From: Girardia tigrina
Taxonomy: Eukaryota
Assembly (NCBI GenBank): GCA_001938485.1
Contig: MQRK01250496.1
Location: 1-50,254, forward strand
Length of the DNA stretch: 50,254 nucleotides
Reading direction: 5' to 3'
The notes beneath the pieces are model-generated. The model was not told the DNA's origin. It saw nothing but the letters and a program-made list of their open reading frames with translations, and did not search any database. Positions 2,581 through 45,005 of this stretch are shown piece by piece. Made by a program: the position numbers and the translations under genes. The stretch's first letter is position 1. Each line of letters opens with the position of its first letter.

Positions 2581-2999
2581 GGTTCGCTTAAAGGAATGTG
2601 TTTCGTCAATTTATGTCTATTCAACAGGAACAATAACTTTTTTTATATCTACGCGGACTATAACATGTTTCGCCTATATTTTCTTATTTCGAGAAAGTAT
2701 TCTATGTTCTACAATCACATAGAAAAATCGATTTGCTTCGGACCAATTTCTAAAGAAACACTTTGATGATATTTATAGTGACTTTATTTCAAGGATTTAT
2801 TTATGTATGTTAAACTATGGGTAGCAATAAACATCACAAGTCTTTCTAATACTTATGTCTCCAATAACAATTCCAACAATGATGTTTAAAGTGGTTAAAC
2901 ATATATCAACCAATCTATGAATGATTACAGACCATCGAAGAAAACTTGTTTTATTTATATATCAAACTAATATATCAAACCTATATATGTTATATAGTG

Positions 3000-11822: not shown

Positions 11823-13243
11823 CTTTGTTTAATGCATCCATTGAAAAGTTAATTTTTCAATGCATGCAGAGATATAACAAATATTACTTTTCACTGTATG
11901 GACTACTTTGCATGGCATGGACTAACTTTTTGATGCTTTGACTTAAAATAAAGGGAAAACAATGAAAATTAAATGTATTTTACTATAAACACTATTATTT
12001 AATATAAAGAAACAATTTTGCAAGGAACAATTTAACTATATAATTATATAAATGTGCAATTTAACAATTATGACCATCAAATTCAGGCCCTAAATTAAAA
12101 ACGCAATTGTTGCAATTTTGAATGTTGAAGTGAAAATGTTTAATATTGCTTTTTTTTGTAGGAATGCATTTATTATTACCCTGAATTAAATCCGCAACTT
12201 TCAATTTCTGAGTCTCAGACGACTCTATATATTTCATTGCAGTAGCCTCAGATTTCCAATTGAAATGGGTACGCATTAAAGTTGTAGTCGCACCGGATTC
12301 TGCCATTGCACTTGCAGTCGACCTTCGAAAAGCATGTCCTGTATAACACTCTTTATTAGATAATCCCAAAAATTTTGCAATCTCCATTGGAATCTTGCTC
12401 AAAACATGTATTCCCATTGGTTGAGAAGTATAATAAGATGAACCATCTCTTTTAGTACGATAAGTTTTCCACAATCTAGTTTCAAAAATTTTCNNNNNNN
12501 NNNNNNNNNNNNNNNNNNNNNNNNNNNNNNNNNNNNNNNNNNNNNNNNNNNNAAATTTATTAGTCACAGCTGTAGCTTGTTTGCTGACAGTATACTTAAT
12601 CCAATAACCTGTAATTCCATCAAATTCTAGGTCATTGCAAAGAATTGAAACCAAATCGGCACACCTCAAGCCTCCGGAAAATGATATTACAGCAACTGCT
12701 TTCATTTGAAGAAAGTAATTCTCATTAGGAGCAGTCTCGAGAAATTTATTTATATCCAACAAACTAAAAATTTTGGGGTTTTTCTTTTATACCCAGCTTC
12801 ATACGATTTCAATTGCATAGTCAAACGAGGTAAAGTTTGAAGCTTCTTGCCATACATCATTTGGACCTTATAATTTAACATTGAATATTCTGACCATAAA
12901 GTACTAGAAGCAAACTGCTTCTCTTTACGTAAATAGTCAAAATATTGTATAAAGACATCCTCAATTAACGTTAACGGAACACTTCCAGTGTATTCGATAA
13001 ATTTATTCCAACAGCCTTCGTATCTCTTTGAGCTTTTAATAGGAACTAAATTGTCTAAAATATCCTTAGCAGATCTTTTCATTTTAATCAATTAATCAAT
13101 ATAATTTTAATACATATAGTACTATATAATTTTAGTACATCAAAAGTACTTTATTTACAAAATTACTATATTTACAAATGCATTAAACAAAATTACATTC
13201 ACTCATTTAAAAAGTACTTTTCAAATTTCGTGAAAATAATCAT
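11823..13243 (-). mobile_element. Crypton (CryptonI-like) tyrosine-recombinase transposon nested in the MULE
   Basis: Splits the MULE motif VEGW|AFQQ. No true TIR or TSD. Encodes a tyrosine recombinase. Confidence 0.8.
12061..13091 (-). pseudogene. Tyrosine recombinase (Crypton YR), one frameshift near 12765 and an N-gap
   Basis: N-terminal LVPIKSSKRYE…SSTLWSEYSML. Catalytic residues GLRCADL (R), GHAFRR (HxxR), HFNW and MKYIE (Y). Confidence 0.85.
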
Positions 13244-19579: not shown

Positions 19580-22500
19580 ATGGCATCCATGAAAAGCGAT
19601 GTTCTAGCCAACAAAACCGTATTCAACGATCAATTGTGTAACAAAATATCAATTGCAATTAAAAAATCCAATATATTCGCACATATCAATCCATGTGATT
19701 TGATTCGAAAACGATTTTCCAAAACTCACCTAAATTCCATTGAAGAAGTCACTGCTAGTAAGAAGTCGAAAATGGACGAAATAAAATCTGACAATATTTC
19801 CATCGATAATACTAATGGCAAAGAAAATATTTCCCAAACTACTTGCAATGTATCGCTGCATGAATTCCTACCGAAACCTGATACATTATTCAGCCAAAGT
19901 ACTCCGAATTCGAAACGGATCACAATAAAAACAGAATGTGTCGTTAAAGAGAATTGTGAATTTGAGCCGACTAAAGTCATCGATCAGAATTGTGTGAGTG
20001 ACAATGTCGATAAAGTCGAAGTGAGACCGAAACCGAAAATCTTCACGATTCAAGGTGCAATCGCTAGCAAAAGCAATAAACCAGAAACGAACAGAGATAA
20101 ATCGCCAAAAATCGAGATAAATCGTGAGAAACACAACAAGGACCTGTCAAATTTGGTGACGTCTCTGTTGCCCCTACCAACACAATTGTTCGGCAAACAT
20201 TCGATTTTGACTGCTCTTGAGGGAGGAAACTACTTAGAGTACGTTCATGTATTTGTGATCAGTTTTATTTTTGATTACATTATTTTATAATAATTAATTT
20301 AAATTTATTTGAGTAATCATTTTTTGTTTCCTAACACATTAACTTTTTAATGCGGCATTGGCCAATTTTAATAATACATATACAGTTATATGTCTGAAAA
20401 AAGTAAAATGTCAATTGTTTTAACATGATTGCTTTCTATATATAAATATGTGTATCCATGGAATTTAGAAACTTATTTTGAAGGGCTCTTACTCAATCGA
20501 TTTTATCCAAACGGATGTGGTTCCGTATGTGCCCAAGTAAACATAAAAACGTGACAATTTATAAAAAATTATAAGCATTTTAAATTATAAATATTTAAAT
20601 TTTTTTTCACAGTAGCCTCACCATAAGCAAAAAATATATTGTTTACATAATCACTCATTTCATTGACTTTTTACAAAACGTTTACAGTTATTAAAGTGAG
20701 GGTGTATTTGGTTATAGATCCCCACTAGTTTAAAAGTACAGATCAATGGAAAAATTTAACTTTAAAAATGTGTTGGACTTCATTATTTTAATTTGTTAAT
20801 TTTTATTAACTTTATAATTATTTAAAATTTTTTTAAATGGAAATTTGATAACTGTTTTTCTATTTCAGTTAATATTTTAACATTTTTCGACAAATTATTT
20901 TAGTTTAAATTTAGATTTTTTTCGGATTATTTATATATAATTTTTTAAAATTATTTTTAACTAATTTTAAAATATTTATATATATATTATGCAAAACAAC
21001 TTTCTCTTCATAAATTTTATTAAATTATTAGATTTTATGAATTTATAAAACTAAATATTTAATTTCAGAGTAAAAGAATGTTTTTTTGAAATTAATTAAA
21101 ATAATTTATCAAATATTTTAAACATTATTAAAAAAAGCAAAGTAAAATTTTCAAAAAAAATATTTCGACAGTATTTTGTCTGCTACGTTATTTCAAATAT
21201 CACGATTAATTACAACAATACTCATGTTCATATTTAAATTAATAAATTAATTATTAACTTTGCTTTTTTATACTTGTGGCATAAGTAACGGTTTTATTAT
21301 TCAGCTTTGTGAAATACCTTAAAGAAGGTGTTCATATGGAAAATGAAATATCTACTAGTGATTTGAAAGAAATAATCGATCTAATGATGCAAAAGAAGGC
21401 CCTTTCTTTAATTCCACAATTTCTCAACTGCCTTATGAAAGCAAATGTCTACATCGATTGTTTAATCGATTCGTTTTTCGAATACAAAAGTATATTTGAA
21501 AAATATCAAAACGATTTTCTCAACTGTGTTTCATCAATGGTCGATTTTAAAATCGAATCAAGTATTAATTCATTTATCAAGTAATGCTTATGAATTTTCG
21601 ATGATCATCCAATTATCAATGGGATAAATTATTAATAGGATTTGTGCTCTGACGAATTGCTGGGACCGAATGTGGCAAATTCTATCGAAAAACAAACCTG
21701 ACCATATAATCCCAGAGAATTACTTCAACTCATGTATGAATATTTTCAGTAAATTGGAGAACAAAGAATTCCCATTTAAACAAGGTGAGTTGCTTAATAG
21801 ATACTTTTATGTGATATTTCCATGCGATTCTCACGTCTAGAGAATGTGGTTCAAGTATTATTTTCACTGTCATTTTTAACGATTATTGAAACTTAATCGA
21901 GAGAGAATTTCTGTTTTTTTTGTTTTCCGAGTTTCATATTCTAAATCAATCTTAATCTGTAAACTATCGATTTTTTAATTATAAATTTTATTACAATTTG
22001 ACACGGTGAAATAGTTTAAATGCCGCTGTGTCCTTATAATATGTATTGATCGTTGATATTTAATAATTTTAGTATATTATGTATAATAATTATTATTATT
22101 TATAATTGTTCGATCATTATCTTATTGATAAATGACAGAAAATTGTGTTCGTCAGTCGTAATAAATGTATTTTGATTCCGATAACGACAAAACAACTAAG
22201 CGACATTATCGAATAATTGACTGATCTTTCTTTATTCTGAAGATATTGTTTATTTTACAGTAAAATAAATAGCTTATTATATAATTTATTATTATATAAA
22301 ACATGTGCAAAAGTTCTAATATCACATTTTATCATTTTTCTTTAAAGATGATACAATCATCACATTTCTTAATTATAAAACTATTTTCAAATTATTCGAA
22401 TTATGCCCATTCTGTGGTTATAATCATAACATTGGTAATTATAACTAAATTAATAATTATTAACGATTCATAAAGTATTATTCATAATTGTTTACATGGT

Positions 22501-25500
22501 TAATAATGGTAACCACGTTATTCGCAATTCAATCGACATTTTAACTCAATAACAAATAAAATACAAATTTAAATAACGAAGTTATTAGACATTTAATCCA
22601 AATAATTCAGAAATAATTTGAAGGCAAATTTTATCAACTTTTTCTATTTTGTTTGGGTTAAAAATATTAGTATTAGTAAACATTTCAATAATGACATTTG
22701 ATCTCGTTATTTTATGAGAAATCTAACTTCTCCGGTCCCGCATTCCTCCCAGTTTTTCTCATTGATCGTTTCGTGTCTTGAGATTTTCCAGTATCTCCCT
22801 TATCAACGCATTATCTTTGTAATTTCTGTAAAAGATGTTGATATATTCCAATTTTAAATAAAATCTCAAATTATTAATTTTTATTTCATGGAATTCCAAA
22901 TACAATTCTCCTTTGTTTTTTAAGTTTTACACATGTTTATAAATGTTATGTGATGTTATAGGTTTACGTTGTCTAAAAATATAACAAAAATTTAAAAAAA
23001 ATTGATGATCAATGACATTCATATTTTTTTTCAAAAAAACATGAGACAAATGTTAAATTTACTAATTTATATCGAAGAAAGTACAAATTTAAAATTTGTT
23101 TAAATGTATCAATTTCAATTTATGACCATTAAAATTGTACTGCCTCCGTTCGGAAATATGGTTTACAGTTTAGCGATTTTCGTCAGGAAATATTGTATAC
23201 ATTTGCGAAAAAATAAAATAAATGAAAAAATGTACATGACAAGTATATTATATTAACTTTATTTGAAACATTTTAAATAAGAATGATTTTTTTAACTCGA
23301 AAATTGATTTGACATTTTTGTACGCTTTTTTGGAACATACATATTTTTCTGACAGTCCACCTTCGTGACGAAGTTTTTCTTTACTTAAATGAGGTATTTT
23401 ATAACAATTTCCTCCACCTGTTAACATAATTAACTCGATACATGCTTGCAATGTTGTAAAAACGTTATCGAGAGTATTTGCTTCTAATTGATGAAATGCA
23501 TCTTGAACACAATTTATTAATTCATCAATTGTGTTGGGCGAAGCTTCATGTTGCAGCGATTGTATGGAGTTGAAAAAACCTAAATCGAGAACATTTAAAT
23601 CGGGGCTATTTGCCGGTTGCGCCTTAAATTTAGTATTCCAGTCAGTAGAACCAAGATCGACAATATCTGCATCAATAAATGGGGATACGCATTGTCTTGT
23701 TGTACGTAAATTGTTTTCTTTTTGTACGCTGGCAGAAATTTAGATTTAATTGCGGGAATTACATTTTCCATGATCATATTTTTGCAATGTACTGCTGTAA
23801 CAGATTCCCCATTTTTTGTTATTATTGTCCCTTTAGCCCCTTTTTTTAGAATTTCTTTGAGCTGGTTCTTGGTAAACAATTGGCCATATTCCAGTTTTTC
23901 CATCAAAATAATGCTTTCGATGTGCATCATAACGTGGTCGAGCTACTGCAGCCATGAACATTACTTTCGTAATAAATCTTTTACTTTTGCAGTTTCTCTC
24001 CGGTTCTTCTAAGTTTAACAATTAGTAATAAGAGCGCTTAACTTTAGTTAGATAAAATCACTTTCTATCAATGTGAACGTAATCGTACAAATCATAAAAA
24101 AGCAAATCTCCATTAATAGTAAGACTTTAGACAAGCAAAACTCCAATCTGTCCATTTTATTTTTATCTGTTAAAGTTGGTTTAACTGTAGAAGATATTCT
24201 CTTGTTATATTTTCCCGACTTGAATATATCAAACAAAGTTGATTTTGGAATACCAATTGCGAAGGAAAGACTGCGTAGCGTTCCTCGCCAATTTAATGGT
24301 GTATTTATTTGCGCTAAATTGTTTGAATAGTCTTTAAGTTTTCTTCCGCATCTTTCTTTTTTGAAGAAACATCGGCACATATTTTACCTTCTCTGTATTG
24401 AGTTTGTGCTGCATGCCAAATTCTATTAACGGTTAGCCGGGAAACTCGAAACGCAGTAGCAACTTCATTGTTATTAGTGTTTTAGCATATTCTCCTTCAT
24501 CTGCTGTTATAATTTTTCTTGACGTTGTTCTTTGGTTAATTCTTTATATTTGGAATCCCTTCTTTCTAAGTTTAACAAATTTCCTTCAGAATTTTCCATA
24601 CTAGTCTTGCAGCGGTATTTATTTTATTTCTAAAGAAACACTGATGTTTGAGCGTAAAGTTTTTAATTAAGAATGATATTGCTTACGTCAAATATTTCAG
24701 GTTATATTGTCATGAGTATTTACTATAACAATATATTGACAGTTGCCAATTTATTTTTATAATCACGATAATGTATGATTTCTGTTGAAATGTATGCCAT
24801 ATTTCCGGACGGAGGGAGTATTATTTATTTATAAAGATGACATCTTTATTGAATTTTGTTAATCTTATTGTTTCCTGTAAACGTTTAAAATGAATCAATA
24901 AAGTAAAGGAAATAAGAGCGATATGAATCATCGGTGTTGTTATCAGAATTAGTTGACAAATGGTACCTGTTTCACAGTGTTAAAAATGGCAAGGCATGTA
25001 TAACTTGATCAATTTATTTAGAAGTGGTAGTGGCAACTGGACCACGTTATATGATATCTAATGGCTTGATTTCCTCTAATGCGTTTACTTGTGATACTCT
25101 TTCCTCCTACCAACATCGGTTGTTGACACCACAATTTTTTATAAAGCCTTTTATTGAGGCGACACTTTCAATGTACTGAAGCACTACAAAAATGATATAT
25201 TAAAAAATTTTCTTATAAAGATGGGGATCCTCAAATTTCTCCACATCTCTTAATGTATACTGATGTCTTGTTGGAAAGTTACAAAACCAAAATTTAGTTA
25301 TATTTTTACTACCAATTTAACTAGGTATGTGAATTTTGTAATTTTGTTATCCTAGTTTTTCGGAATAAACTGCTTTTCTTTTCGGTTTTTCGTATATTTA
25401 TAATTTATCATTCCATTTTGAGCTAAAAAATTGAAATTAATATAATACAGAGATTATATAAACATTACATTCACATTACCTTAAAGAAAAGTAATTAAAA

Positions 25501-28500
25501 AATATTTTTTACTGAAAACAAAGATTGGTTCTGCTATCAATAATATTCTTTAGTTTGCTTAAAAAATCCCTGCTCCATAGAATGCTCTGTCAAATGCTAT
25601 CTATTTTCTTATCCAGTTGTCAAATCTCTAAGTATTTAAAGTAAAATTAAATTCGATTGTCAATAAAATATTTTATTAATTAACAAAATATTCTTATTTT
25701 ATAAAATATTTAGAAAGATTATAAGAAAATCAAGACGATTACATATTTAACCTTTTCCAGCCCAAATTATTATTTAAGCAAAATATTGGAGCATTTAATA
25801 TCCGTTACAATGTTGATTTAAATTGCTAAGAAACAAGTGAGAATCGCGCTTTTTTGCATTCTAATATATGCAGTGTCATCTATTAGACTTTTTAGAAACT
25901 ATTACTATGTGTACAATTTAAATTTGGTAAAAGAGATCTGTAATTTAATTTTTCAAATATGTTGCAAATGGCAACAATGGAATGGAAAGAGTTAAAAAAT
26001 TATCATACAATCAGCTAAAATACCAAAATATCAAAAATTGTAAACCTAATATTTTAATCTTATAATTAGGATAAAAACATGCTCTCTTTAATTTGTTCTT
26101 TGTATATCAAGATGAGCGTTATCTATACATAAAATGATTGATTAGATTTATCTAATAGTGCCCGTTATCTTTTATATTTACAATTTTTTTAGGAAGTGAT
26201 CATTTTTGTTTGTCATATATATCATTTATCACCAGATATTACCCGATTTGGTTTTACGGTCTATATATATATATTTCAGTTCTCTAAATAATTTGTCATT
26301 TAGCTTTCTTTAGGTCATGTATATTCTTCCATAATTCACTGAATCCATAAACTGAAATTTAAATGTATATTTATTGAAAGGATATGAAAATTAAATGAAA
26401 TATTTAAAGAAGTAAAATAATTCAATAACAAAATTTACTTAACACATTGACTGCTGTTGACATCATGCACCGAACGTCTGCTACGCGTTGGAAAATATGA
26501 TCGAACATTGTTGCCTTTTTAGCATTTAACACATTGAATGCTGAGTACGAGATATCTCGTACTTAGCGTCTTAGTAATGTAAGCCAAAGTACGAGATATC
26601 TCGTACTCAGCATTCAATGTGTTAACGACAAAAAGAATTTTTTTAAAATATACTAAATGGATTATCTGTTATTTCTGAAGATTTTATCAGAATCTAATCA
26701 CCTTACTGTCGGCCAAGATTGAAATTATTGCCACTATTGAATATAACACATCAATACACTCAAACCTTTTTTGTACAATTTTATAAGGGATTTATGAAAG
26801 AGAGTTCAAGTATCTAAGAATTCAAATAACTTCTAATTAAAAAAAAAGATATCAGATTTACTATCTTTAATTCTGCTTACTTGGCTGCAAAACTTGTTTA
26901 GTTTAGTACTTATAAAAAAGTCTTAAGAATAAATTAATTATTCCTACTAACACATTTTTTCGGTATCGCTGTTACAAAATCTCTATTACTCCTTCGAACA
27001 AAAGAAAAAAATTCCAATCTTTTTCAATCCTACAGTTCAATTAATTTAACACTTGGTACGGAACTTAACCCTTAGTCTTCTTTTAATAGTGTTTAGATGT
27101 ATTCTTCGTTTTACCTTTTGAATTTGTACATCTCGATCTGTAACAATTTGAAACCATGTGTCTTTTCCACGTCATAATTTTTGCCTTCAGGCTTTCGTAC
27201 TTAAATTTTTTTTGAGTAATGTAATCTTATTTTTCTCGCAGCTTCTCTTTAAGGCGCACTATTGTGGTCTTTGACAAACCAGTAATTTCAACCAAGGGAC
27301 GCTGACTGGCATATATGTGTTTCTTGATTTAATCTAAGAGTTTAATCTTGTTAAATAGCTTCAAATACCGCCGCTTCATTAAATCGCGATCCTTAATTTT
27401 TTAAAAAATTGAATAAATTAAGTGATTTCAGGATAGAGACAAACCTCACATAGTTAAGAATTTCTCACCTTTTTGATATTTTTTAAAAAATATTTTCCAA
27501 CAAAACCTTAAAAATATTCAAACTTTTGACGTAAAATGACGTAGTTAATTTAAGAACAAAGAAAATTTTAATATTTAAATTTAAGAAGTAAGATTTTTTA
27601 TAAATTTTTTTATTTACATTTTTTTTACTATGAATTAATTTCCGTTAATGACGAAAAATTTCTTTTCATATGGCGATAATATTTTATTAAGATTATAATA
27701 ACCGCCATTAGATATCAGGCTTGCTTTTAAGGTGTTGCTGGAATAAAGGGGGCAAGTGAACCATATCGATATGGATTGGATTGACAATGACTGTGTGAAT
27801 AGAGGGGTTGTCATGTATCAGATAATATTTGGTGAGTGGAAAGAGGTGGACGAGTTCGGAGAAAAATTCTTGGTATTTATCTCTATTCAGACCACCGTAA
27901 AATGTGCCAATCCTCTTGTAGAGATGGCCCTGATGAGGGATATATTTTTCACCAAGCTGTTTGTACTGGGGTATAGATCCGAGTATTCATTTTTGATCAG
28001 CCGTTAGTGCGTAAAGTCAATTGATTGAAACCCATTTCATCAATTTAAAAGCACGATTTTGTACTCCACGCTTCATGAAGATGCCTCAGTAATTCTGCAG
28101 ATCGTAATTCTTTTACTCGGTCACTGTTTCTTTGATCAACAACATGCCTCAATTCTTTAACGGTGAATAATTTTCAGGATTAGAATCTGCTTATTAAGGG
28201 TAGGGAACATCCAATACTCGTATTTTCTTTCAGAAAGGTTTTCATTTATGATAATGGTGGCTCAAGGAAGTCCTCCAGGTAATCGAGTAACTTCACTCAA
28301 GAACTTTCAGTTATCATAATGGGCTGATTAACTCCACGTGTTCCTACACTGATCTCCTTGATTTACCGATATTTGTATATAATGTTGTTAACGGTCTCTT
28401 GGTGGATCCCTAATTGAGAACTCAGCAGATAATAATCTTGTTCATTCAGGCTTGATGTAACAAGCAGGATTTTGTTGGCTTTGGCGATCCTACCGTATTT

Positions 28501-31500
28501 TTCCGTGTATAAGATCCGCCCTTATTTTTAGGTGTGCATTTTTGGAAAAGTTTTTTTAATGAAAAATTAAAAAATATTAAATAAACTTTATTATAAAAAC
28601 CATAAAATTCTTCCTCACTATCACCTGAGTTATTAACCAATTCTAACCTTTCTGTCATAACAGCAGGATCTTTTTCATTAGAGGAGTGACTTTCATAAAT
28701 AGTATCATCCTCAGTACCATCCAATGCATTGGATATTCCACACTTTTTAAAAGATTTAATGACAACTTCTTCCTTGACACCATGAATTGATAACCCAAGT
28801 ACAAACCTCACTAATGGTAGGTTTTCGTACTTTGCCTGTGGGGTCACATTGGAGTCTACTTCATGCATCCATTTGTTCCAATATTCTCTCATCAGATTAT
28901 TGAATGGGTTATTAATAGAAACATCAAGAGGTTGAAGCTGGCTTGTTAAGCCTTCTGGAAGGACAGCCAATTGGGTTTCAGTATTTGTTGCTAACTTTTT
29001 AGTTTCTTCTGTGTGGTGAACTCTGAACTGGTCAAATACAAGCAAATTAGGCTTCTTGGAAAGAGCTCCAGTTCTTGTTTGTCAAATCGCAATCGTTGAG
29101 CATCGACACGTTTTGCGGATGGTAGTGCAGAAGATCAAGTTTCACAAGCAGGCAGTGGTAGGTCTTTCGGAGTAGGTCAAAAGCAGCTGCCCCACGAGAC
29201 ACAGACGTTGAAGGATCTGTAGCTACAAAATTTTGAACTTCTTCGAGCCGTTTAGGCGTTGTAGATGTAGATTGACGCCCTTACCGGATGAGATCTTCAA
29301 TGCTTTCAGTCTGCTGAAAACGCTCAAACAATACCTTGATCGTCGTAAACTTAAGAGGTGAGGTAGCAAAATAAAAATACCACTGTATTCGTACCTCTTC
29401 ATAATTCTGGAAATATGCGTAGAGGAGTACCATTTTAATTCTCTCCTAAAGAGGACGCCGTATTGACATTTCATTCATCTGTAAATAAATAATAATAGTC
29501 AGTGTTAAAACGTAAATATGAATTTCCGCGAAATAAAATGGCTTTCTGGAGATAGATTAAAACAAACATCCTCCAATTACTTTTGGATAACCCTATATAT
29601 ATATTTTCACTTATTCAATTTAATAATGTCCTTATAATTTGTAAACAGGTATATTAAAGTCAATAACTTTTGAACCCTTTATGACTTTTAAGGTGAAATT
29701 ACAAATGCTTATCTAAAATCTTCGTTCAACAATTTGAGCAAATATTGATTCTTTTTTTTCAATGTGGTTTAAAACAGTCTTATTCGATTTGATATCAAAG
29801 TACTTGGTTAAGAGCACAAAAATAATGTAGTTAATTTAAATTAAACATAATAATACATAATGAATTTATATAACTGAAGAGCTTTGTCTATTTATAATAA
29901 GTCAGTATATTAAAATTTTAATTGTTAGGATTTGGGTGTTTTAAAGGTCTAAACTAGGGAGTAATTTAGACCAATTTTTTTATGGACTCTCAAGCTCTAA
30001 AAAATTTATAGACAGCAAAATGGGCTTTTCTCCCCCTTTCAAGAGGATAAACTGATTGCTTGAATCAAGGGGATAGGTTGTAGAACTTGTTTTCAATCAG
30101 ACGCTGTTTTCGGGTATTCGATTGAATAATGCTGCTTTCGCTTCAAAAGAAGTATAATCATTATTTAACATTTATTATTCCAGTAGTATTTTTCGTAAAC
30201 ATAAATTATTACTGTTTCAGATGCTGCTTATTGGTAGGCTAATTAAGATATTTAACGAGTATTGTGCAATTTTATCTCCAACTACCAAAAATTTTTCTAT
30301 GTTCCCAATTTGGAACGTTGGTATGATGTTCTTAAAACATAAGTAAAGTGTCGCCACTGATACAATATCTATATAAATGTAAATGTTGTAGATGATGTGT
30401 ATTTGACCATCAAAAATATATTGTGTCATTAGTTTTTATTTTAATGCAAACAGAAACATACTACGCATGTATTATGTGTATTGTAAGTTTCAAAGCATGC
30501 ATCATGCAAACGCTTGTCACATTTACGACGACAGTTAGCTATCATATCTAACGTTATTTGGTGTAGGAGCTGTAGATCCAACAGCAGTACGTTTTGCAGA
30601 TAACTTGAATAAGGTAAGAAGAATGTCAAATCTGAACTGGATATGGGAGAGCGCTTCTCTCGAAGGATTTACAGATTCCACCACCATTTTATACCTTTTA
30701 TTTTGTCTTGCGCTTATACTGGAATCAGTATACAAATCTCGTTATCCATGTCATTATAATTGGTACTTTCATCGTCACTAGACCAACTTTCGGTATCGGT
30801 ATGTAAAACCTCAAATGTTTATGCTGCATTGAATAATAATAGTTTTTAATAATAATACACAATTGTATAAACTAATAATATTAAACTAATACGTAAATAA
30901 TTCAGTAAACTTAAAATTTTGCTTCAGTGAATGCTTAATCATTACATTATGAGCAGTTATTTATATTATATTATATTTTTATACTTATATACTTATTCGT
31001 TAGTGTTAGGTATATTGTAAGTAGGGATGGACCGATTTTATTTTTTGAAATCCTGCCGGTGCTGGAGTCAGACTCAGAATGTTTGTCCGACCGGAGTTGG
31101 AGCCGTTATCTGTTTTCAAATAATTGAAAAAACGCAAATTATATACAATAAGATATACGATATATTATTAGGGTAAAACACAAAATCGATAAGCTAAAAA
31201 GACGTTTCTTTCTAAATTATTATATTATAATAATCAATTAAGCAAATGCGAATAAAATTTTTTTAAAGGATGAGGTTTTTTGCACTTTCTATAAGTTGGG
31301 ATCGATGATCAGTGACAATGTCTCCAGTTGTACTGAAGACTTTCTGATGAATCGCTTGTAGAAGGTGTTATCGAAGTATGATAAATTATACTCCTTTTTA
31401 TTCAATGAAAGAGACGAAAAGGTTTTTCATACCGTTAATGGGTGTATTTAATTATGACGGTTTAGGGATACAGATGCGTAAAAAATGCATTATTATTAAT

Positions 31501-34500
31501 AACGGCCTAAAAATCATTTCCGTCTCTTTCATTGAATAACCGGTATCGACTAAACATCCTGTTTCATTGAATTCCTATTTTCAAAAAATTTAGAATTTCC
31601 TTCAAACAGTAAATTTGTTTTTAAAAATTTTACGGGTTAAAAAAATGCAAAATTAGAATTAAAAGCTAAATTTTTTCTTACTTTATATACTATATATATT
31701 TTCATTTACAATACTATATATATTTACATTTTTTACTTATTTCAATTTAGTTAATGTAGATTAATTTAATTGTATAAAACGAGATATTATTTTAACATTA
31801 CTTGTTTTTTAAGTGATTACATGTAAGAGTTTCTAATTTTTGTAAACATTAAGTGGAACCCGGCATCGAAACCGGTGTAATATATGTCGGATATGATACC
31901 GGTTTTCAAGAGCCTGAGCTGAAAACCGGTGCATCCTAGCAAAAAGTATTACTAATTGTTAGAGTGCAAATATTTATCATGAAAAATATTGGGTTAAAAT
32001 TGTCTGTCTTGTCTTTTTTTTCAAAATCAAAAACAAAAACATTTTTTTTAAACTTGTGACATATTTTCAAAATTACATAATTATCTATTAATACCATACA
32101 TTTAGACATCAAAATCACACATAATTTTATTTGAAACTCAGCAAATTAACAAAAATTCAGTTTGTTTTTACAATCCACTATTTAATCAATAATTAAATTG
32201 AAAATTTACATCCATCAGTGGAAGATTACCAGTAAAGTCAAGATACTAAAAATCTAATCGCATTTAATTCAATCAAAAAGATAAATCGATAATGAATCGA
32301 TTACAATTGATAAATGGTTTTTTTAAATTATAGAAAGAAAAAAATTATCTCATAATTTTAGAGGAAATCTATCAGCTTGTTTTTTGAATAATTTTCTATT
32401 ATTAATTGATTTCACCAATTATTTTTTGGTGATTTGATGATTCATACTAGAAAACAATAATCAATAAATAAACCAAAATAATATCATTCGTATCGGAACA
32501 GTTTTTGATATCGATATTTTTTAATCTAATTATTAATTTATTTTTACTATATAGTGATTTATTATTATTACTTGTATTCATTTTACTATTGCTAGTTCTG
32601 TTTTTTCTATATATTATTTATATTATTTTATGATAAATTTATAATCAAATAATCGATTATGTTCAAAAAATCATGTTTAAATTTGTTCCAAGTTACATAT
32701 TGTGGTGCAAAGCATTAACGAGCACATCTATTTAGCATTTATATTTTAATTTAATTTATTTTATTTTAATTTCCTGTTATTGTTATAGATAAAATGGATA
32801 ATTAAATAAATTTTATAGATTGCTCTAAGTATTATTTTATATTTACAGAGTTATCTGAATTGAATTTATGAAAATGATGTTTCTAAATTTATATTATTAC
32901 AAAAGCTTATCTTTATTTTACTTTGTTTTGCAACAATATTTTATATTAAATGTTTATTTTTTAGAAACCTTGATGAGTATAATTTTTTACATTAAAAGGA
33001 ATATGCAACCCAAAAAATCCGTTTATATGGCTGATATTTGGTTTTATTGTATGTATAATGATATTAATATTAAAGATATTAATTCCGTAATGGAATTCGA
33101 AGCTCAACAAAACATTGAGGCAATAATAGGTTTGATGTTCATGTGTACATTTAATTATATATTAATATAAAAATATAGAAAAACTTAATAATATGAATGA
33201 TCCATCTTTCATATTTGGTATGAAATTGTTGACTAAAAACTGGAATTTAATATATAACTTTGAATACTGTGAATGGTTCGCAAAGTTAATTTCTGAGAAA
33301 AGTGATATTAGAAAATGCTTGTTTTCTATAAAAGATTCCATTCATTCTTTAAATCGAAATATGAAACAAGATATTTTTGATAATTTTTATCTTTTGGCCA
33401 TTCGAGTTATGTCGTATTTAAACAAGAAGTCATTATTTACTTGCTCGAAAAATGTCTATGAAACGTTTCTTAAAAATTTTTTTCCGGATATTAAACGGAC
33501 TTTATTAAAAGTTAATGATAAATTCAAGCTTAAATGGACAATGGTTGAATGCTTAGTCTCATCAGCTGAATACGAAAAAGCGCTAAATGTAATCAAAGGT
33601 ATTTCGAAGGAACTTTTTTATGTGAAATTGATTTTTTTTCAACAGAGTTTGAAGTACTTAAAGATTTAGAAGTAACGTCTTTGGATTATAATAGAGTCAA
33701 AGAGATTTTACCGAACCTAGTTTGGCACCTTGTTAATTCTTCTGAATTGCTTCCTGTTATTATTTTATTTGAACAAGTTGTATCCATATTCATATTCAGT
33801 AAGAATATATATTTAATCTCCAACATTAATTCGAATTATATATTTAGATGAAAATAGTGATAGTGCATACACAAAAAGTTAGATTTTTAAAACATTTTTT
33901 CTAGAACCTTTCTTTTTTTCACTTTCCATTGCATTAATTCATTGTAAATTTTTCAGATTGCAACGAAATATTCAATTTGATAGTTGTTAAGGCTTACGAG
34001 TCAAATAATATTGATGTTGTTAAGAAGATAATATCACTATTAGATCTCATTTTATCAGCCAATATTGATTTCGAAATAAGCAAAGAAAGTTTACGTTATT
34101 TAGCTGTTGCAGCTGTTCGAACAAACATTCCTTTCAAAGAGCTGCTTGACTTCGTTGATTTATGCTTCAATTTCAAAATATTTGGAAAAATTGAAACTAC
34201 CGAGGACGGTTTTGGTAGCTTTGTAAATGCAGGTTCTCATTTAACATATGAGGAAATTGTTTTATTGGTCACCTGGATGTGTCGCCATGTAAAAATTAAT
34301 TTGGTTAAAACTGCTCAAAATCAAGGGTCTTCTATTAGAGAAAATATAATGAAAGTCTGTTCGATTCAATTTGTTTTACATTCATCTAGAATCCAAGATT
34401 TGTTTTCCAAAGAATTGCGGGTGGATTTATCTTTAAAAGAGTTTTTAGCTAGGTTTACAGAAGCTTTGAATAATCCAAAATATTTGAAACATCCAATTAA

Positions 34501-34594
34501 ATTTTCTACGTCTGATGAATCAAATAATTATGGACTGAAAATTTTATGTGACAATAGAATTGTATATAATACAATCTATTATAGTGACATATAA
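19580..34594 (+). CDS. Multi-exon host gene, ~828 aa, TOPAZ1-like (helical-repeat region plus conserved C-terminal domain)
   Basis: Exons 19580-20238, 21305-21580, 21639-21784, 32965-33129, 33179-33598, 33646-33798, 33848-33877 and 33957-34594 all have GT..AG boundaries, consistent phases and an open frame (2487 nt). AATAAA at ~34659. Gene existence is well supported; the TOPAZ1 similarity is from memory (~0.45). The ATG follows an acceptor AG, so upstream exons may exist. Confidence 0.8.
22930..24845 (+). repeat. Diverged duplicate of 19315-19590 (intron end and acceptor), split by the DD39D mariner
   Basis: GACCATTAAAATTGTA|…|TTATTTATTTATAAAGATGACATC matches GACCATTAAAATTGTATTATTTATTTTTGAAGATGGCATC. 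Confidence 0.75.
23140..24818 (-). mobile_element. DD39D (plant-type/Stowaway-related) mariner, full length, decayed
   Basis: TA|CTGCCTCCGT…ACGGAGGGAG|TA TIRs. Motifs KSKRFITKVMFMAAVARPR, GKTGIWP, QQDNA, QPANSPDLNVLDLGFF and GGGNCYKIPH. Confidence 0.92.
25751..25991. mobile_element. piggyBac-type MITE
   Basis: TTAA|CCTTTTCCAGCCCA ... TGGAATGGAAAGAG|TTAA, imperfect TIRs. Confidence 0.55.
26530..26621. mobile_element. 92-bp piggyBac-type micro-MITE
   Basis: TTAA TSD and perfect 35-bp TIRs CACATTGAATGCTGAGTACGAGATATCTCGTACTT. A related end lies at ~26443. Confidence 0.85.
27710..28490 (-). mobile_element. IS630/Tc1-like transposase remnant
   Basis: Minus-strand IDEMGFNQLTLRTNG*S, GGLNRDKYQEFFSEL, YLIHDNPSIH and HLPP. 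Confidence 0.6.
28493..29082 (-). mobile_element. pogo (POGK-like) transposon 3' half
   Basis: TA|CCGTATTTTTCCGTGTATAAG terminus. ORF has VFDQFRVH…LTSQLQPLDVSIN…SFKKCGISNALDGTEDD. Confidence 0.9.
29085..29595 (-). mobile_element. rosa/DD41D-like Tc1-mariner 5' fragment
   Basis: ERIKMVLLY…TIKVLFERFQQTESIEDL..GR…VATDPSTSVSR. Terminus TA|TAGGGTTATCCAAAAG. Confidence 0.6.
30440..30830 (-). mobile_element. piggyBac transposase remnant
   Basis: KIKGIKWWWNL, SHIQFR, VRYD and the C-terminal Cys/His motif KCDKRLHDACFETY. Confidence 0.7.
31022..31938. mobile_element. hAT-type non-autonomous element (TAGGGATG…CATCCTA)
   Basis: Ac-like termini and ACCGG subterminal repeats. No TSD recovered. Confidence 0.5.
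31399..31538. mobile_element. Small TA-flanked MITE nested in the hAT
   Basis: TATTCAATGAAAGAGACG … CGTCTCTTTCATTGAATA. Confidence 0.65.
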
Positions 34595-37427: not shown

Positions 37428-38241
37428 TTAAAGTATTTGAAGTGCCGAAAGCTTATTTCCAAGTGTTTCAAAATATAAGTGAACTTGATCTTGCAAATCC
37501 GATAATAATTCTTCAATTCTTCTTGAAATTGTATTGTCCGACAGTGGTACTGTTTTTATTTTTTCAGCTCCTTCAGGTTCTTGCATCGTTTTGACAATAA
37601 TAGCAAGTATTGGTGCGATAATTACTTCAGCTTCTGTATGTGCTTTTGTGCGTTTCGCAATCAAATGAGCAATATTGTAACTTGCAATTTAAGCTTTCTG
37701 AGGTATCTTCAAAAAGTTTGTCAAATTTTTCGATTGTTGATTAATTTCTGTTGCTAAGTTCTCAAAATATTCCCTAGATTTGGTTTTATGTATTGGATGA
37801 TTTGTCTCCAAATATCGCCTCTGTTTATTTGGAACCAACGATTCATTTAACAACATTATATTGCAAATAAAGCAATAAGGAACTTAAGCATCTTCAGATA
37901 AAGATACAATGAATCCATATTTTATATATTTTTCGCTGAATTTTCGCTTACTTGCTTTTCTTTGACTTGGTCCATTTTCTTGAAAACTTATCCATGTCTA
38001 AAGGGTATACTAAAAAAATATTAAAAATGTGTATTTTAATTTTCCTTACTTCAATAAAATTTTTTTTGATTCTTCGAAATATAGAACTTGAAATTTAAAC
38101 AAATTTAATTAAGTAAAATATATGATATTTTAAAATTTAATATTTGAAGTTAATATTTTAAATTTAAATAATATTTTTAATATTACTCGAAATCTCGCGA
38201 CACATTTGCACATTTTTCGCGACACAGTTTGGGAACCACTG
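37428..38241 (-). mobile_element. hAT Buster (ZBED5/SCAND3-like) 5' half
   Basis: TIR CAGTGGTTCCCAAACTG ends at 38241. Motifs KYIKYGF, CFICNIMLLNESLVP, IAKRTKAHTEAE and VPLSDNTISRRI. Confidence 0.85.
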
Positions 38242-39868
38242 ATGTAGACTATACTATTTGTATTAGTCGTCTACACCAGTGGTACGCAAACTATTTTGTT
38301 GTACCACCCCTTATTCTGTATAAAATTTTGTCGCGAACCCTTGGTAAATAATGGACATTTTTTCAATCAACAGTGTAGTTACAGTGAAAAAAAGAAAAAA
38401 AAATTTAAGAACGGTTTTATTTAGGTATATAGTGATATTAATAGAACTAAGTATTGTTTTATATTTAAACATGTATTTAATGAACAAATTTTCATAACTA
38501 TCAATTAATGAAAAGTGTGGGCTTGCCAAGTTCTAATAATTAGCGTCTATATTACGGTTTATATTTGAAATTGCAAGCCGTAGGTCGTCCTACATATTAT
38601 AACACGTCATTAAAGACACATTAAATTTGAAAAATACAATATAATAAAAATTAATTAAATAAAACAAAAGTTTTATATTTTTAATTTTATTTTTATTTTT
38701 GAATGTAAAAAGAGTGTCTTAGTAATGTTTATTGGCTTGTTAGAGTATGGTATTGTCGAGAGTAAATGCGATGCTGTGTATTTTTTTTTATTATTGGAAG
38801 ATATGTTTATTTGATTTGTTTTATATTGCTTATTTTTATTTATTATCTTTTTGGTTTGAGTGTGTCTTTTATTTTTTATTTTTATATTTTTTTATTCACC
38901 TCCACCGAATGTCAGAAAAGCTAATCTGCATTTTTACGTTAAAGGTTTTAGACCCGCAGATATAGCTTCAACAAGAAAATTAATTCGTCATATAAAAATT
39001 ATAGCTCAGAAACAAGAGAAAGAGAAACGTCAAAAGAGAATTCTTTTTATAAAAAAATCCGTCTTACCGAAGGTAAATTAAATCACATAAAATAATAATT
39101 CCGGCTTCCCATAGAAATATGAGATAATGGAAAATTAAAAAAAAATTAATCATGAAATATTTACAAATGAATTATTACATATAGAAGTTATAAAGCTTAC
39201 GACAATTTGGACACAAATTAATCAATGAATATTGTCTATTGCCGTTTTCCAGCAATCCAAATTAATCAGAGAACTATCCTATTATTTTTTTGACTTACGT
39301 TATTTTTACGACATCGTGAGTGATTGTTTTGTTTTGTGAATATCAAAAAAAACTTAACCGTTGTAAACTAGTTAATTGCATTACAGTATTTGTTAAAGTT
39401 ATTTTATTTTGGATTTTTCTTACATAATATAGAGAAGAATAAAATATTCATAACCAATTAGATTAACTAACGAGTATTTTATTTTTTTACCACGTTTTTC
39501 TTAGCTTGATTTCTTGTCTGTCTGGAACAAATCTTGCGATTGATTTTTAGACCACTTTCGGTCATCCAATTGAGCTGATTTTTTTTATACAGGCTTGGTT
39601 CCGATGACAATACAATATTTTAAAACATTTACGGCATTTATCTTTATTAAACCGCATATGCTATAATTAAATAGCTTATGTCTTATATGGGAAAATAATC
39701 TGTGTTAATGATGTACGGAAAAAATTAATAAATTGAACAAATATTGTGAAAATCAAGTGATAATTAAGTGTAGAATAGATGTTTTAAAATTAGGTTTAAA
39801 AAATAGTTAAATAATATTATTAATAAAAAAAATTTTTATAAAAACAACCACGTTTTTCAAGCATTACC

Positions 39869-40175
39869 AATGCAGTAAAAAGAGGAAAATAATTTTTTTT
39901 CTAGACATGAGCGAAATTTTATACCTAACCAAAAACGTGGGGCATAGAAATGATCGATTGTTACTAAAAAGCAGTAACTTTAAAATAATTTGTTTTCTTT
40001 CACTTCCTGATAGGCGAAATTCTTCTAAAATTTAAAAATTTTATTCTAGTTTCTAAAAGCAAAATATTATGTTTTTAACATACTATTGATTCAGAAAACC
40101 GCCCCACGTTTTTGGTTAGGTATAAAATTTCGCACATGTCTAGAAAAAAAATTATTTTCTTCTTTTTAGTGCATT
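39869..40175. mobile_element. Foldback/MITE with ~74-bp inverted arms
   Basis: 39869-39942 is a near-perfect reverse complement of 40102-40175. Confidence 0.75.
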
Positions 40176-40629
40176 AATTTTATAATTAATCGTCAATTTC
40201 GAGATTACATAGTTTCACAGGTTACGTAGACAAGTTAAGGAAGCATATTTACCTGCTTAGCTTGTTTCCGTAACACTAATGTATTCGAAAAGCGGGGGAA
40301 AATACAAATCTACGTAAAATATTTACTAATATCACAAGTAGAATTGTGATTACAACAGTTACTCAAACCACTTTCACTATTCGACATTTCTTCTTGATTA
40401 ATAACTTTCTGTGTTATCTTATTATTTTGAAAAAAAATTGAAAAATAATTATAATATAAATTAATTATCAAAACTCTCATTAGTTAAAATCAGATCTAAA
40501 CATTTTATAAATCAAATTAAAATTTTAAATTAAAAAAATTTCAAACGTAATATTATTTTTTTTAATATAAAATTTTAATTTTAATTATTTTCCAAATTTT
40601 TCAAAGAACTAAGATGACACAGAAAAAAT

Positions 40630-40860
40630 AAAAAATTATTCATAAATAATCACAAATACATTCATAATTAATCAAAAATTAAATATTAAATAATTCAAAA
40701 ATGGTTAATAAATAATAAACATTCATTCAAAAATAATCACCAATTAATTAACAAATAATCACAAATTAATAAATAAATAATCATAAATTAATTAATAAAT
40801 ATTCACAAATTACATAATAAACAATCAAAAATTAATTAACAAATAATTATAAATTACTGA
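40630..40860. repeat. Minisatellite of the same family as 1-395
   Basis: ATAAATAATCACAAATTAAT units. Confidence 0.8.
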
Positions 40861-40880
40861 TTATATATAAATTTACTTAC

Positions 40881-41175
40881 TTATCCTTTTATATTTGTTC
40901 TTGTGATACTCCTCGATGGTCGGAGTATCCATGCCATCCTCCACAACAAACGTCCCGTTTGCCCAGCACAAATTTGTGACGAAGCCGTCAAAATTTGTGC
41001 AGCTGGGACCCGTTGGGATGTAGCATTCCATTTGCGATTTATAATACGTCTTGCACGATATAATAGCCGACACAACGAGCAGCAATTGCACGGTTGTCGT
41101 GCTGCTCATTTTATCGGCTATATCCTCAAGTGGATTTTGAAATATAAGATTTGATTTTAAAAATTCTCCTATCAT
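40881..41175 (-). CDS. inx: Innexin (invertebrate gap-junction protein), first coding exon
   Basis: LEDIADK, TM1, MECYIP…FVTNLCWANGT (the two conserved extracellular Cys). Acceptor TTTTAG|ATG and a phase-1 donor GTAAGT just before where YYQW is expected. No later exon found in the window. Confidence 0.85.
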
Positions 41176-41357
41176 CTAAAAAAAATTTAAAAAAGGTCAT
41201 TTAAGACACGTCATTAATTTTAAAAAATAAAATATAATAAAAATTAATTATTTAAAACAAAACTTATATTTTTAATATTATTTTTATTTCAATAATTTTT
41301 ATTTTTGAATGAAAATATTTTCAATATTGAAAATTTCCGAATATGACTTAATATTTT

Positions 41358-41609
41358 TATTAATACAAGTTTGATTATCCCCAGGACAATTTTTGTCAAA
41401 ACATTCGTACTATTGATTCCGACTAATTAATTAATGACCTTATTCTTATTATCTGAGCAAATGGAGAGTTAAATAAATTGGTTAAAAATTAAAATAATTA
41501 TTTATTATTTTAAAAATATTAATTCTCTTTATTTATTTAAAAATTGTAAATAAAAAAATAAACTTATTTAAAATTTTATAATTATTTAAAATTCGAAATA
41601 TTCCTCACA
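41358..41609 (-). mobile_element. Probable short solo LTR of the TGTGAGGAA group
   Basis: Ends with TTCCTCACA. Candidate TSD ATTTT on both sides, but it is low complexity. Confidence 0.4.
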
Positions 41610-43330
41610 ATTTTTATAAAACACTTTCATTACTTTATTTACAGTGAAAAAAACAAAAAAAAATTAAGAACGGTTTTATTTAGGTATATAGTGATATCAA
41701 TAGAACTAAATATGGTTTTATATTTAAACATGTATTTAATGAACAAATTTTCATAACAATATCAATTAATGTAAAGTGTGGGCTTGCCAAGTTCTTAAAA
41801 ATGTTTGAGTTACATAATTAATCTTTATGCTTAGTTTCCAAATTTCTTTTTAATTTGGCAGGTTTCATGCTTTCATGTGCCAGTTTTTCATTACAATTAA
41901 CACACAGTCGGTCTCATTGATAATCCAAAATGTAAATCCGTATTTAATAAATTCTTCTTGATATTTTCCGTCTTATTACAAGTAGAAGCTGAGCCAGCGG
42001 ATTCATTTTTATTTACATTTTCATTAGTAGTTTTTCTAAGTTTATTAGCCTTATGTATATCATTCCAATTTTCATTGTCATTCTCTTGTAAGCGTTTGAT
42101 ACCTGTTTTTAAAAATTTATCCATCGCGATAAAACTGACAACTAAAATAAAATTTATTAATTTATTTTTAATTTAATTAATTTATTTTATTAATCAAATT
42201 TATTATTTATTACCTCGAGAGCACGTTTCTAAACTTAAAAAAAATTTGAACATGCGTGTTGCAACATAAAGATATGAAATTGGTAACCGATACATCTAAT
42301 TTTATCTTTATATATTGCTAACGCTAAAATATTTTTGAAATAAAATACCATTTTCAGTGTTAATAGTTGGTTGATTGTATCTTTGTATTGAAATAAATTT
42401 CTTCGAATTTAGCGAACACCCAAAATCTGTTCGCAACAACTCCGGGGATAGCTACGCATAGTGAGGGCACCACCGGTCTACACGATAAGTTATAGTAATT
42501 TCACTTCATATATTGTTAGATTATTAAATCTCTTAACAATAATTTTTTTTCTAAAATTTCCTATCTGGATTGTAAAAAGAAATTATATTCAAAAAATATT
42601 TATTCAAAATTAGATTATTTTGAATTTCAGATTTTTCAGATATCATGAATTACCGTTGTTTGGAATTCAAATTTGTATTATTAATATACATGTTATAATT
42701 ATTATTTATATTGAATTTGGATTCAATCACTAATCCTCAAAATCAATATCAAATACATCTGAATAATTATCGAATAACAATCACTGTTATTTATCGCTTG
42801 CACTATATATATTTTTGTGTATATAATTAAGTTAAGAAAATTTAAATAAAGCATTAAATAATTAAATATTAAAGTAAAAAAAATTAAATAAAGAAAAAGA
42901 ATTCAAAATAAATTTAGATGTTGTTCATATTGGCAATATTGATATTTGCTGATTGTTGATCCAGTCATGTGACTCTTGTTGTTCGAGTTTTCGAACTTGT
43001 TTTCTACCACCGTTTTTTATTCGGCCAGTTTGTGTGCGGGTATCTTGGGTATTCGAGCAGATAGAATCAGTGAAATAGCTCGCTCTTATTGGCCGTTGAT
43101 CGTCAAATCATAGCTAGCTGTGGCAAAGAGAAATTTTAAAGTGAATAAATCACTTTTTTACTGATTCAAAAACTGTTGTTTCGATTGTTTCTCAAAAATT
43201 AAAAATTTTTAATTTTATGAACATGAACTTTCGATTGGCAATTGTTCTCGATTTTAATAATGAAATTCAACGATTTTTTACTCGATGCAATACTTCGACA
43301 TGTTATCGCCTTTAAATTGCTTGTACTATA

Positions 43331-45005
43331 CGTGGTGCGCTCAATAAGTAGAACATTGTTGAAAGGATTATTGTATAAACCCGTGTCAGTACTCTTTCGA
43401 AATACTTCAGTTTCATAGTCCTTCGATTTTCTTTCAATTAATACATCCAAAAATGAAATCTTGTCCCCTGATTCGATTTCACTGGTAAATNNNNNNNNNN
43501 NNNNNNNNNNNNNNNNNNNNNNNNNNNNNNNNNNNNNNTGGTTTTTATTTTCAAAAATCAAGAAGATATCATCAACATATCTAGTATAAAATAAAGGCAT
43601 GTTTCCTTCAAAAAAATTGAATTTTTTCTCCAAACTTTGAAGAAATATTGACGCCATTAAAGGTGCTAATGGAGACCCCATTGCCACTCCATCAACCTGC
43701 ATGTACCATTCAACTAATGTACCATTCAACTAACATAGTGAGCCTAACATAAGAGTAATAATCCGATTCCAATGAAATTTATTTTTCATAACAAGCAAGT
43801 TTTAAAGGTATCATTTCTCAAAGAAATCTCCATTCACACCAAAACATTTTTTCCAGCGCACAACAAGTTCCAGAAAGACTTTTTCGAAGAATTTCGGTGG
43901 CTGTGGAGCCAAGAAATTTGAGACTTCATCTTTCAAATCTTCTTTCGTAGCAAAATGTTGACCCCTGAGAGCTCTCTTGAGGTGGTTGAAGAGATGATAA
44001 TCGGATGGCGCCAGATCCGAACTGTATGGACGATGTGAGAGTAGGGTGAGGCCACAACCCACAATTGATGACATTGACAGCCCACTTGTGTGGATGGGTG
44101 CATTGTAGTACAAATAATATAACTCATAAACTCTGCTCTTCCTTCTCAGCTTTCTGGCCTGTAGCACGAGCCGGGAGTAGTATTCACTGTTGGTACGAAC
44201 ACCAGCTTCCGCAAATTCGGCAAGGATCATTCCATTTGCATCCCAAAAAGTGGTGAGCATGAGAGCTTTTTTTTGAGAGGTTGATGTTCGCATCTTTTTC
44301 GAACACCCTTCACCTGGCAGCTTCCACTCTTGAGACTCACGTCTTGATTCTGGAACATAAAGGGCAAGTGGTGTTTCATCCATTGTCCTAATATTCTGTA
44401 AAAAGCGGTTTCCAATACGTTCAGAGGTTTAAGTTTTCCTGGCAGCACATCAATCGCTGATCCTTCATGTGTGCTGTTAAAAACCGTTGCACGAGGCGTG
44501 AACACAATTTTCTAATTCCAGTTTCCGCAAGCAGGGATTGTATGGTACCTGTGCTGACATTTAATCGCATTCTTTGCTGGTGATTCGTCGCTCACACCGC
44601 ACGATTTTCTTGAGTCTTTTCGCTATTTCTTCACCAATTTCACGTGGTCTACCTGACTTTTCTTCATCAAAAACAGACATTCGACCATCTCGAAAATGGT
44701 TGAACCTTCGTTTGACAGTAGATATGGATGGACTCTCTTCGCCATAAACAGAACTTAGCTGCACGAATATTTCTTCCTGGATTTTCCCTTTCATTAACAA
44801 GAAACGAATAACGCTTCAATATTGGACGTTTTCCAATGGCATTTTCGAATTTATGCGCTCTCTAACCTAAACACAAATAATGTATTAAAACGAATATCAC
44901 AAATATTACCTTTGCTTTAAATATAAATATTGCTTTTATGAAAAAAATCATTGGAATCAGAATATTAGTTCTATGTTAGGCTCACTACTTATTGAGCGCA
45001 CCACG
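43331..45005 (-). mobile_element. mariner (DD34D), near full length, frameshifted
   Basis: TA|CGTGGTGCGCTCAATAAGTAG…TGAGCCTAACATA, with the matching TIR ending at 45005|TA. ORFs 44561-44800 (HTH) and 43811-44383 (MDET, FWD, YSSDLAPSDYHLF). Confidence 0.93.
43352..43735 (-). mobile_element. Penelope-like reverse-transcriptase fragment inserted in the mariner TIR
   Basis: QVDGVAMGSPLAPLMASIF, RYVDDIF, FLDVLI and VFRKSTDTG. Confidence 0.9.

Follow-up and report, generated by a model that had tools for sequence, protein, structure and literature searches.

In a 50,254-nucleotide stretch of the genome of the planarian Girardia tigrina (GenBank assembly GCA_001938485.1, contig MQRK01250496.1, positions 1 to 50,254; hereafter the window), a single copy of a Buster-type hAT transposon with one target-site duplication (TSD) encloses an orphan first coding exon of a probable innexin-11-like gene. 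We think it probable that this exon was acquired in place, long after insertion of the transposon, by template switching to a cluster of innexin-11 paralogs and back. The locus is best read as an incomplete single-copy Pack-TIR of a known capture kind. Its parts, from left to right, are as follows.

38269..38276, plus strand: left TSD, GTCTACAC (nnnTAnnn), based on the two matching octamers and on family flank statistics; junction bridged with 0 differences in read runs X1 and X2
38277..38591, minus strand: 3' end of the Buster-type hAT, family positions 1-315 counted from that end, with terminal inverted repeat (TIR) CAGTGGTACGCAAACTA; broken off at 38591 and including segment copy B (38376-38534); based on family matches
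38592..38698, minus strand: upstream DNA of a sister innexin paralog, beginning about 8 bp before its ATG position; based on paralog matches
38709..39158, no strand given: fragment of dispersed repeat R1, 83-90% identical to other copies; based on repeat matches
39198..39488, no strand given: fragment of low-copy repeat R2, best match 85.6%; based on repeat matches
39476..40175, no strand given: high-copy repeat R3 with internal inverted arms, 87-95% identical to other copies, right side cut where the others continue; based on repeat matches
40176..40275, no strand given: 100 bases for which the similarity search found no match
40276..40880, minus strand: 5' part of innexin intron 1 (dispersed repeat and 11-bp minisatellite); based on a paralog intron match
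40881..41175, minus strand: innexin-11-like coding exon 1 of 295 nt, open and in phase 1; an orphan, as its exon 2 is lacking; based on PF00876 and paralog alignment
41176..41638, minus strand: DNA upstream of exon 1 with a conserved AG before the ATG, paralog homology reaching up to the hAT junction (TTA microhomology); based on paralog alignment
41636..41803, minus strand: B', the other copy of the hAT 3' segment, covering family positions 100-268 without the terminal 99 bp; based on alignment to B and to a family copy
41792..42475, minus strand: 5' part of the hAT, reduced by deletions, which retains an N-terminal remnant of the transposase and has a mutated TIR (CGGTGGTGCCCTCACTA); based on piecewise match to the 3,612-bp family copy
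42476..42483, plus strand: right TSD, GTCTACAC, matching the left TSD in sequence

The octamer GTCTACAC was found three times in the window, against 0.38 occurrences expected. Since this hAT family prefers nnnTAnnn, we computed the chance agreement of two flanks from the flanks of the family itself (55 in total, 24 left and 31 right, with T at position 4 in 52 of them and A at position 5 in 52) and obtained a value of about 0.002. Both outer ends are true termini of one Buster-type hAT family, and the perfect 8-bp TSD around Buster-hAT ends that had been claimed in a first-pass annotation of this DNA is thereby upheld. The segment 38277-38591 matches 39 other places at 83-89% identity among the 40 scored, none of which extends past 38592 (in our DNA similarity searches of the assembly, which comprises 1.43 Gb in 255,254 contigs, the best 40 of 287, 254 and 117 candidates were scored). 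TIRs of about 17 bp are common to the family copies, and 3 of the 17 bases of the right TIR are unlike the usual family end, including position 2, where CG replaces CA. Such a terminal change from CA to CG would be expected to block the transposition of a hAT element. The perfect TSD does not prove a recent move, because old family copies keep perfect TSDs too: among seven family copies with both ends, retrieved from 20 fetched stretches, two have a perfect TSD, four have one mismatch and one has four. When an empty site was looked for, nothing else in the assembly matched the right flank over its first 140 bases.

When placed on a 3,612-bp family copy that has a near-perfect TSD of its own, the hAT pieces of the window correspond to positions 1-315, 100-268, 1785-2039, 2837-2958, 2960-3006, 3165-3257 and 3549-3590. 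A 638-aa open reading frame (ORF) with a PF05699 match aligns to this family copy in pieces of 44-73% identity, and remnants of the same transposase ORF are present on the minus strand of the window's element with the C-terminus encoded at the left end, which is therefore the 3' end of the hAT, as had been proposed. A second related ORF of 567 aa gave no Pfam match. The element contains no inner TIR, as its left piece ends at family position 315 and its right piece begins at 100, and the 1.5-kb deletion after B' is bordered by similar sequence at both ends. The family copies differ by 5-8% from their majority in five of six segments, and no young burst was seen. Judged from its sequence, the element is a Buster-type hAT: it has an 8-bp nnnTAnnn TSD, short TIRs and hAT transposase homology. 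The label Buster itself rests on the TSD consensus and on what we take to be a likeness of the N-terminal motif.

Family positions 100-258 are present twice in the element, and the two copies of the 3' segment already noticed in the first-pass annotation, B (38376-38534) and B' (41636-41795), are identical at 152 of 161 positions. Over 155 columns, both depart in the same way from the majority among 27 family copies at 13 positions, while no single family copy has more than three of these private changes, and they differ from each other at five to six positions (5/157; 95% interval 1.0-7.4%). Because 13 private changes are shared against five to six differences, the duplication was late and derived from the copy's own aged lineage. 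The intron piece differs from the intron of paralog contig C244488 by six substitutions in 428 bp (95% interval 0.5-3.1%), an interval that overlaps the one for B and B'. At the right junction, for which four type-A paralogs were used as donor proxies, the paralog upstream homology reaches the first base of B', TTA is common to both sides, and 8 of 11 bases around it are alike. In view of this microhomology and of the 13 shared changes, capture during repair after insertion, one of the two routes put forward earlier, fits best.

The non-hAT DNA between the ends amounts to about 3.04 kb (38592 to about 41638). Its leftmost piece had been described, at 38600-38705, as a second copy of the DNA upstream of the local exon. 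However, 38592-38698 is 96% identical over 80 bp to C64137 and 98% identical over 45 bp to C226684, compared with only 85-88% to its own upstream counterpart (41187-41289), and is thus a piece of a sister paralog, not a local copy, so that the cargo carries DNA from two paralogs. The three broken repeats and the 100 unmatched bases inside the element were absent from the earlier description. R3 (39476-40175) begins in a T run and has a (GTCT)n tract and long inverted arms; we take it to resemble Helentron/DINE-1-type elements. The intron portion 40276-40702 is identical to the C244488 intron at 421 of 428 positions (98.4%). The 11-bp minisatellite of this intron, which is very high-copy in the runs, is also found at positions 1-400 of the window (80-86% alike); except for it, no part of the filler recurs elsewhere in the window. 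Four N gaps of 48-188 bp are present in the window, all outside the element.

The exon matches PF00876 (E 6.7e-12), its ATG is preceded by TTTTTAG, a GTAAGT donor stands at its end, and both splice sites are kept. The first-pass annotation was therefore right in reporting an intact exon with both splice sites, and needs the correction that this is coding exon 1 of a gene with two coding exons, of which exon 2, about three quarters of the protein, is missing. In the paralogs C244488, C230094 and C246484, exon 1 and a large exon 2 lie within one contig (exon 2 is identical in the latter two, which may be one gene), whereas tblastn with four innexin queries found no exon 2 in the window, and hence no downstream innexin exon to which the captured one could splice. 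The unit cannot encode an innexin channel. The gene is likely innexin-11-like, as the only named matches at E<=1e-30 for a paralog's exon 2 were Dugesia japonica innexin11 (55%) and Schmidtea smedxin-11 (52%). The window exon aligns to the first 100 residues of Dugesia and Schmidtea innexin-11 and stops at the matching point, and against Dugesia innexin11 its subfamily ranks first among the fetched innexin loci. An Atlas search returned only the label 'innexin', and no full-length protein with the window's exon 1 was found, which counts as weak evidence.

Compared with intact type-A genes, the exon has a ratio of non-synonymous to synonymous divergence (dN/dS) of about 0.26 (dN 0.22, dS 0.85), which argues for long purifying selection in its ancestry. 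Its nearest relatives are relics, namely C64137 (tandem fragments, dN/dS about 0.7), C226684 (stop, truncated) and C4944 (stop). A related copy in run X1 shows 10 differences in 159 bases, nine of them non-synonymous when taken singly, a small count that fits neutral change (P 0.34 for at most one synonymous). Residue 41 is Cys, compared with Tyr in six other aligned sequences; the more distant C202221 also has Cys. Relaxed selection on the window exon is likely.

The innexin-11-like gene is multiplied in this genome (C244488, C227909, C243290, C57727, C246484/C230094, C123662, C31926, C246317 and C202221). There are at least two exon-2 types, about 0.35 apart in dS, and several exon-1 types; some paralogs are intact and one is broken. 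The type-B exon-2 copies are 0.03-0.15 apart, with dN/dS mostly about 0.3-0.5. In C244488 (L076, 1401-6432), the 11-bp minisatellite of the intron lies between an exon 1 of type A and an exon 2 of type B, a join that may be a genuine chimera formed via unequal recombination or a misjoin. Truncated or tandem exon-1 relics without the window's hAT ends are found in C64137 (L079, 2437-3420), C226684 (L083, 8736-8878), C4944 (L028, 393-569) and C190222 (L023, 9-247). The window's hAT ends had no match in any of 19 stretches from 13 paralog contigs, several of which are only 1-5 kb long. With the 3.6-kb family copy as query, 3 of 20 stretches gave matches, all interior and at 70-83%; the longest of them is 17 kb away from the relic in C226684, a contig whose positions 20-49 kb do not contain the left end. 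The hAT as a cause of innexin-11 multiplication is thus not supported, and the suggestion that such elements provide a route to innexin family expansion finds no support in these 19 stretches or in a cargo without exon 2.

The private left-end 31-mer occurs once in the assembly, and no scored match crosses either cargo junction. Neither a second copy of the unit with the same ends nor copies with distinct TSDs were found in the assembly, so that the search for exon copies with the same hAT ends and different TSDs, as suggested in the first-pass annotation, came back empty. Composite transposition is not supported: movement as a Pack or composite unit, the other route proposed there, found no support, given the single 31-mer, the lack of junction-crossing matches and of inner ends, and the CG in the right TIR. 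On this evidence the unit is single-copy, and it is predicted to be immobile.

Reads were taken from two DNA runs of one study (X1 and X2), which may not be independent of the sample of the assembly, and their contigs were compared over 37900-41480; run X4 contributed 27 partial reads only. The left TSD junction is bridged without difference in both runs, at depths of 77.5 and 60.7. Of the words sampled from 40860-42700, the two runs contain 72% and 65%. Contigs identical to the exon have depths of 273-298 (X1) and 256 (X2) versus 61-103 for most neighbours, and one intron contig of X1 is also deep (232). GC bias was rejected as the cause, since in X1 a junction contig of 41% GC has a depth of 78, whereas the exon contigs, with 33-47% GC, reach 273-298. 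Although depth is not itself a copy number, this is most simply explained if the genome has additional, identical copies of the exon that the assembly has collapsed. A search of the whole assembly with the exon, in which all 12 candidates were scored, revealed no full-length match above 79%. In the quest for the parental innexin, the intron leads to C244488 at 98.4%, the best full-length exon match is at 79%, and identical exon copies are visible by read depth only. An apparent joint of 38249-39483 in the reads was set aside, as its 24-base side lies between two repeats. No RNA run is listed among those that contain the sampled words, and one unspliced contig of depth 3.7, from a run guessed to be RNA, is evidence neither way on expression.

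We favor, with some reservation, the following course of events. The element would have inserted and then aged. Repair or replication synthesis would later have passed its first 315 bp and switched into innexin-cluster DNA near the ATG of a paralog, on the upstream side, where about 3 kb were copied, the template being probably a decayed tandem array (upstream piece, repeats, half an intron and exon 1), unless several switches took place. Synthesis would then have re-entered the hAT near position 103, about 215 bp behind its exit, at the TTA microhomology, which would duplicate the 3' segment, and deletions would finally have taken away most of the transposase. That the switch out came after position 315 and the return near 103, followed by the deletions, is our reconstruction and, like the whole, somewhat more probable than not.

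Several observations weigh against this course of events. No contiguous donor for the 3-kb filler was found, the best match of R2 being 85.6%, and the exon has no full-length assembly match above 79%. A cargo-free allele of the window's hAT was not found either. Microhomology at the left junction is 0-2 bp, and 2 bp only with a 6-nt slip. None of the read contigs listed crosses 37900-41480, and the left TSD junction is the only one seen to be bridged in that span. In X2, a 399-bp contig over the exon is identical to the window and about 2.5-4 times as deep as its neighbours. Such complete identity over 399 bp is unlikely at a divergence of 1.1% (P 0.012), and very much so at 3.2%; there are too few differences for the inferred age, so that the reconstruction has to include a later step in which the exon region was duplicated or gene-converted. 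The summed depth of R2 in X1 is about 75, i.e., one locus-worth with no second copy. Finally, published single-copy Pack-TIRs have a small gap between their breakpoints (median 4.6% of the transposable element, TE) and a median filler of 224 bp, whereas here there is an overlap and 3 kb of filler (PMC8277862).

The comparison with known systems points to the same kind of event. In the text of their survey, Tan et al. 2021 report 370 Pack-TIRs in 100 animal genomes, 208 of them hAT, nearly all single-copy and formed via transposition-independent gap filling with a median microhomology of 2 bp; 13.4% carry exonic DNA, and the median size is 224 bp (PMC8277862). Like these single-copy cases, the window's locus consists of an aged hAT whose two ends enclose a host exon, is present as one copy with one TSD pair, shows short microhomology, and was probably formed by a capture after insertion. 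It differs in its filler, 3.04 kb long and a mosaic from two paralogs, and, unlike the gapped breakpoints described there, it duplicates TE sequence (at least 157 bp) across the breakpoints (PMC8277862). Template switching between a TIR element and a gene also links it to the multicopy Pack-TIRs assigned to FoSTeST, Pack-hAT-N8_XT with the CAPSL 5' untranslated region (UTR) and Ssk-FB4, the latter of which likewise carries upstream DNA; however, FoSTeST elements have several copies with distinct TSDs, and Ssk-FB4 contains a nearly whole gene, whereas the window has one copy, exon 1 only and a mutated end (PMC8277862). With the Buster family, as described in PMC3517528, the element shares the 8-bp nnnTAnnn TSD, short TIRs, a 3.6-kb family copy and hAT transposase remnants; unlike Buster elements, it is heavily deleted, non-autonomous and loaded with foreign cargo. 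Compared with planarian innexin-11, the window has exon 1 alone, with Cys at residue 41, in a genome that holds several innexin-11-like genes and exon relics.

Without any capture, a tandem segmental duplication of a region that contained the aged hAT and its TSD, followed by two deletions, could have left the 3' end of copy one, native innexin relics and the rest of copy two. This would account for the private changes of B and B' and for the identical TSD; the contig stops 7.8 kb further right, which leaves room for a larger duplicate outside it, the read depth suggests extra identical exon copies, and tandem exon-1 pieces do exist in C64137 and C190222. We nevertheless regard it as unlikely, since both deletions would have to end within the hAT, R2 is present at one locus-worth of depth in X1, and nothing else of the filler but the high-copy minisatellite recurs in the window. 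Alternatively, template switching, or a parent and a daughter hAT on either side of the exon, may have built the unit elsewhere; its transposition to this site in one piece would then have made the TSD, in accordance with the FoSTeST model. The perfect TSD and the lack of a donor context for the filler nearby in the window speak for this origin, and a parent with a locally hopped daughter would share private changes too. However, old copies retain perfect TSDs as well, inner termini are lacking, the searches revealed no sibling that shares the private ends or junctions, the divergence within the family gives no sign of a young burst, and the right TIR is changed at 3 of 17 positions, including position 2, all of which makes this origin quite unlikely.

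The locus might also be a misassembly, or two rearranged loci joined via the intron minisatellite or the collapsed exon. The assembly is indeed fragmented (255,254 contigs), the join runs through the 11-bp minisatellite and a likely collapsed exon, C244488 itself looks chimeric across the same minisatellite, and none of the read contigs listed spans 37900-41480. On the other hand, the sequence from one TSD to the other is free of N gaps, a matching TSD together with 13 shared private changes is not what a chance join would produce, and the two runs bridge the left junction and contain 65-72% of the sampled words of 40860-42700; we hold an artefact to be very unlikely. The 5' end of the hAT, its transposase remnant and the captured exon share one orientation, and because of this and of the retained splice sites one may imagine that transcription from a transposon promoter yields a chimeric, spliced RNA. 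Its product would be a truncated innexin-11 made up of the N-terminus, the first membrane helix and the first extracellular loop, a subunit able to tune stem-cell gap junctions, with the extra identical exon copies as its spreading descendants; we give this idea scarcely any credence.

The surroundings contain further mobile-element remains. A second, different Buster-like element (37500-38241, minus strand; TIR CAGTGGTTCCCAAAC, flank GTCTACAT) ends at 38241, 27 bp left of the TSD; it retains a decayed N-terminal half of a transposase, and its other end was not found. At 12061-13091 on the minus strand, a frame that contains an N gap and matches a tyrosine recombinase (PF00589, E 4.9e-9) is accompanied by another frame upstream of it; we take the two to be possibly a relic of a Crypton-like transposon. 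Pfam identified DDE_1 at 28.4 kb (28446-29081) and, within 43199-44428, a fragment of a reverse transcriptase at 43.2 kb and Transposase_1 at 43.8 kb. Judged by eye only, the frames at 6740-7777 and 23248-24383 resemble parts of transposases; the frame at 23.2 kb has no Pfam match. Open frames of 167, 218 and 257 aa on the plus strand (33166-33669, 33938-34594 and 19517-20290) have no Pfam match and are possibly exons of an unknown gene.

Our literature search, which does not extend to most subscription papers, found nothing among the papers listed, judged by titles and listings, on transposon-linked innexin duplication in flatworms or on innexin-11 duplication or planarian innexin expansion. 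The word 'planarian' is absent from the main text of Tan et al. (PMC8277862). The locus is a clean, internally datable case of a dead DNA transposon that took up a gene fragment, from a lineage unmentioned in the main text of the published survey, with two unusual traits, a 3-kb mosaic filler and TE sequence duplicated at the breakpoints. Smed-inx11 is reported to be required for neoblast maintenance (PMC3552358), and the multiplication of this stem-cell gap-junction gene of planarians into several innexin-11-like genes and decaying exon-1 relics matters for the design of RNA interference (RNAi) experiments and for annotation.

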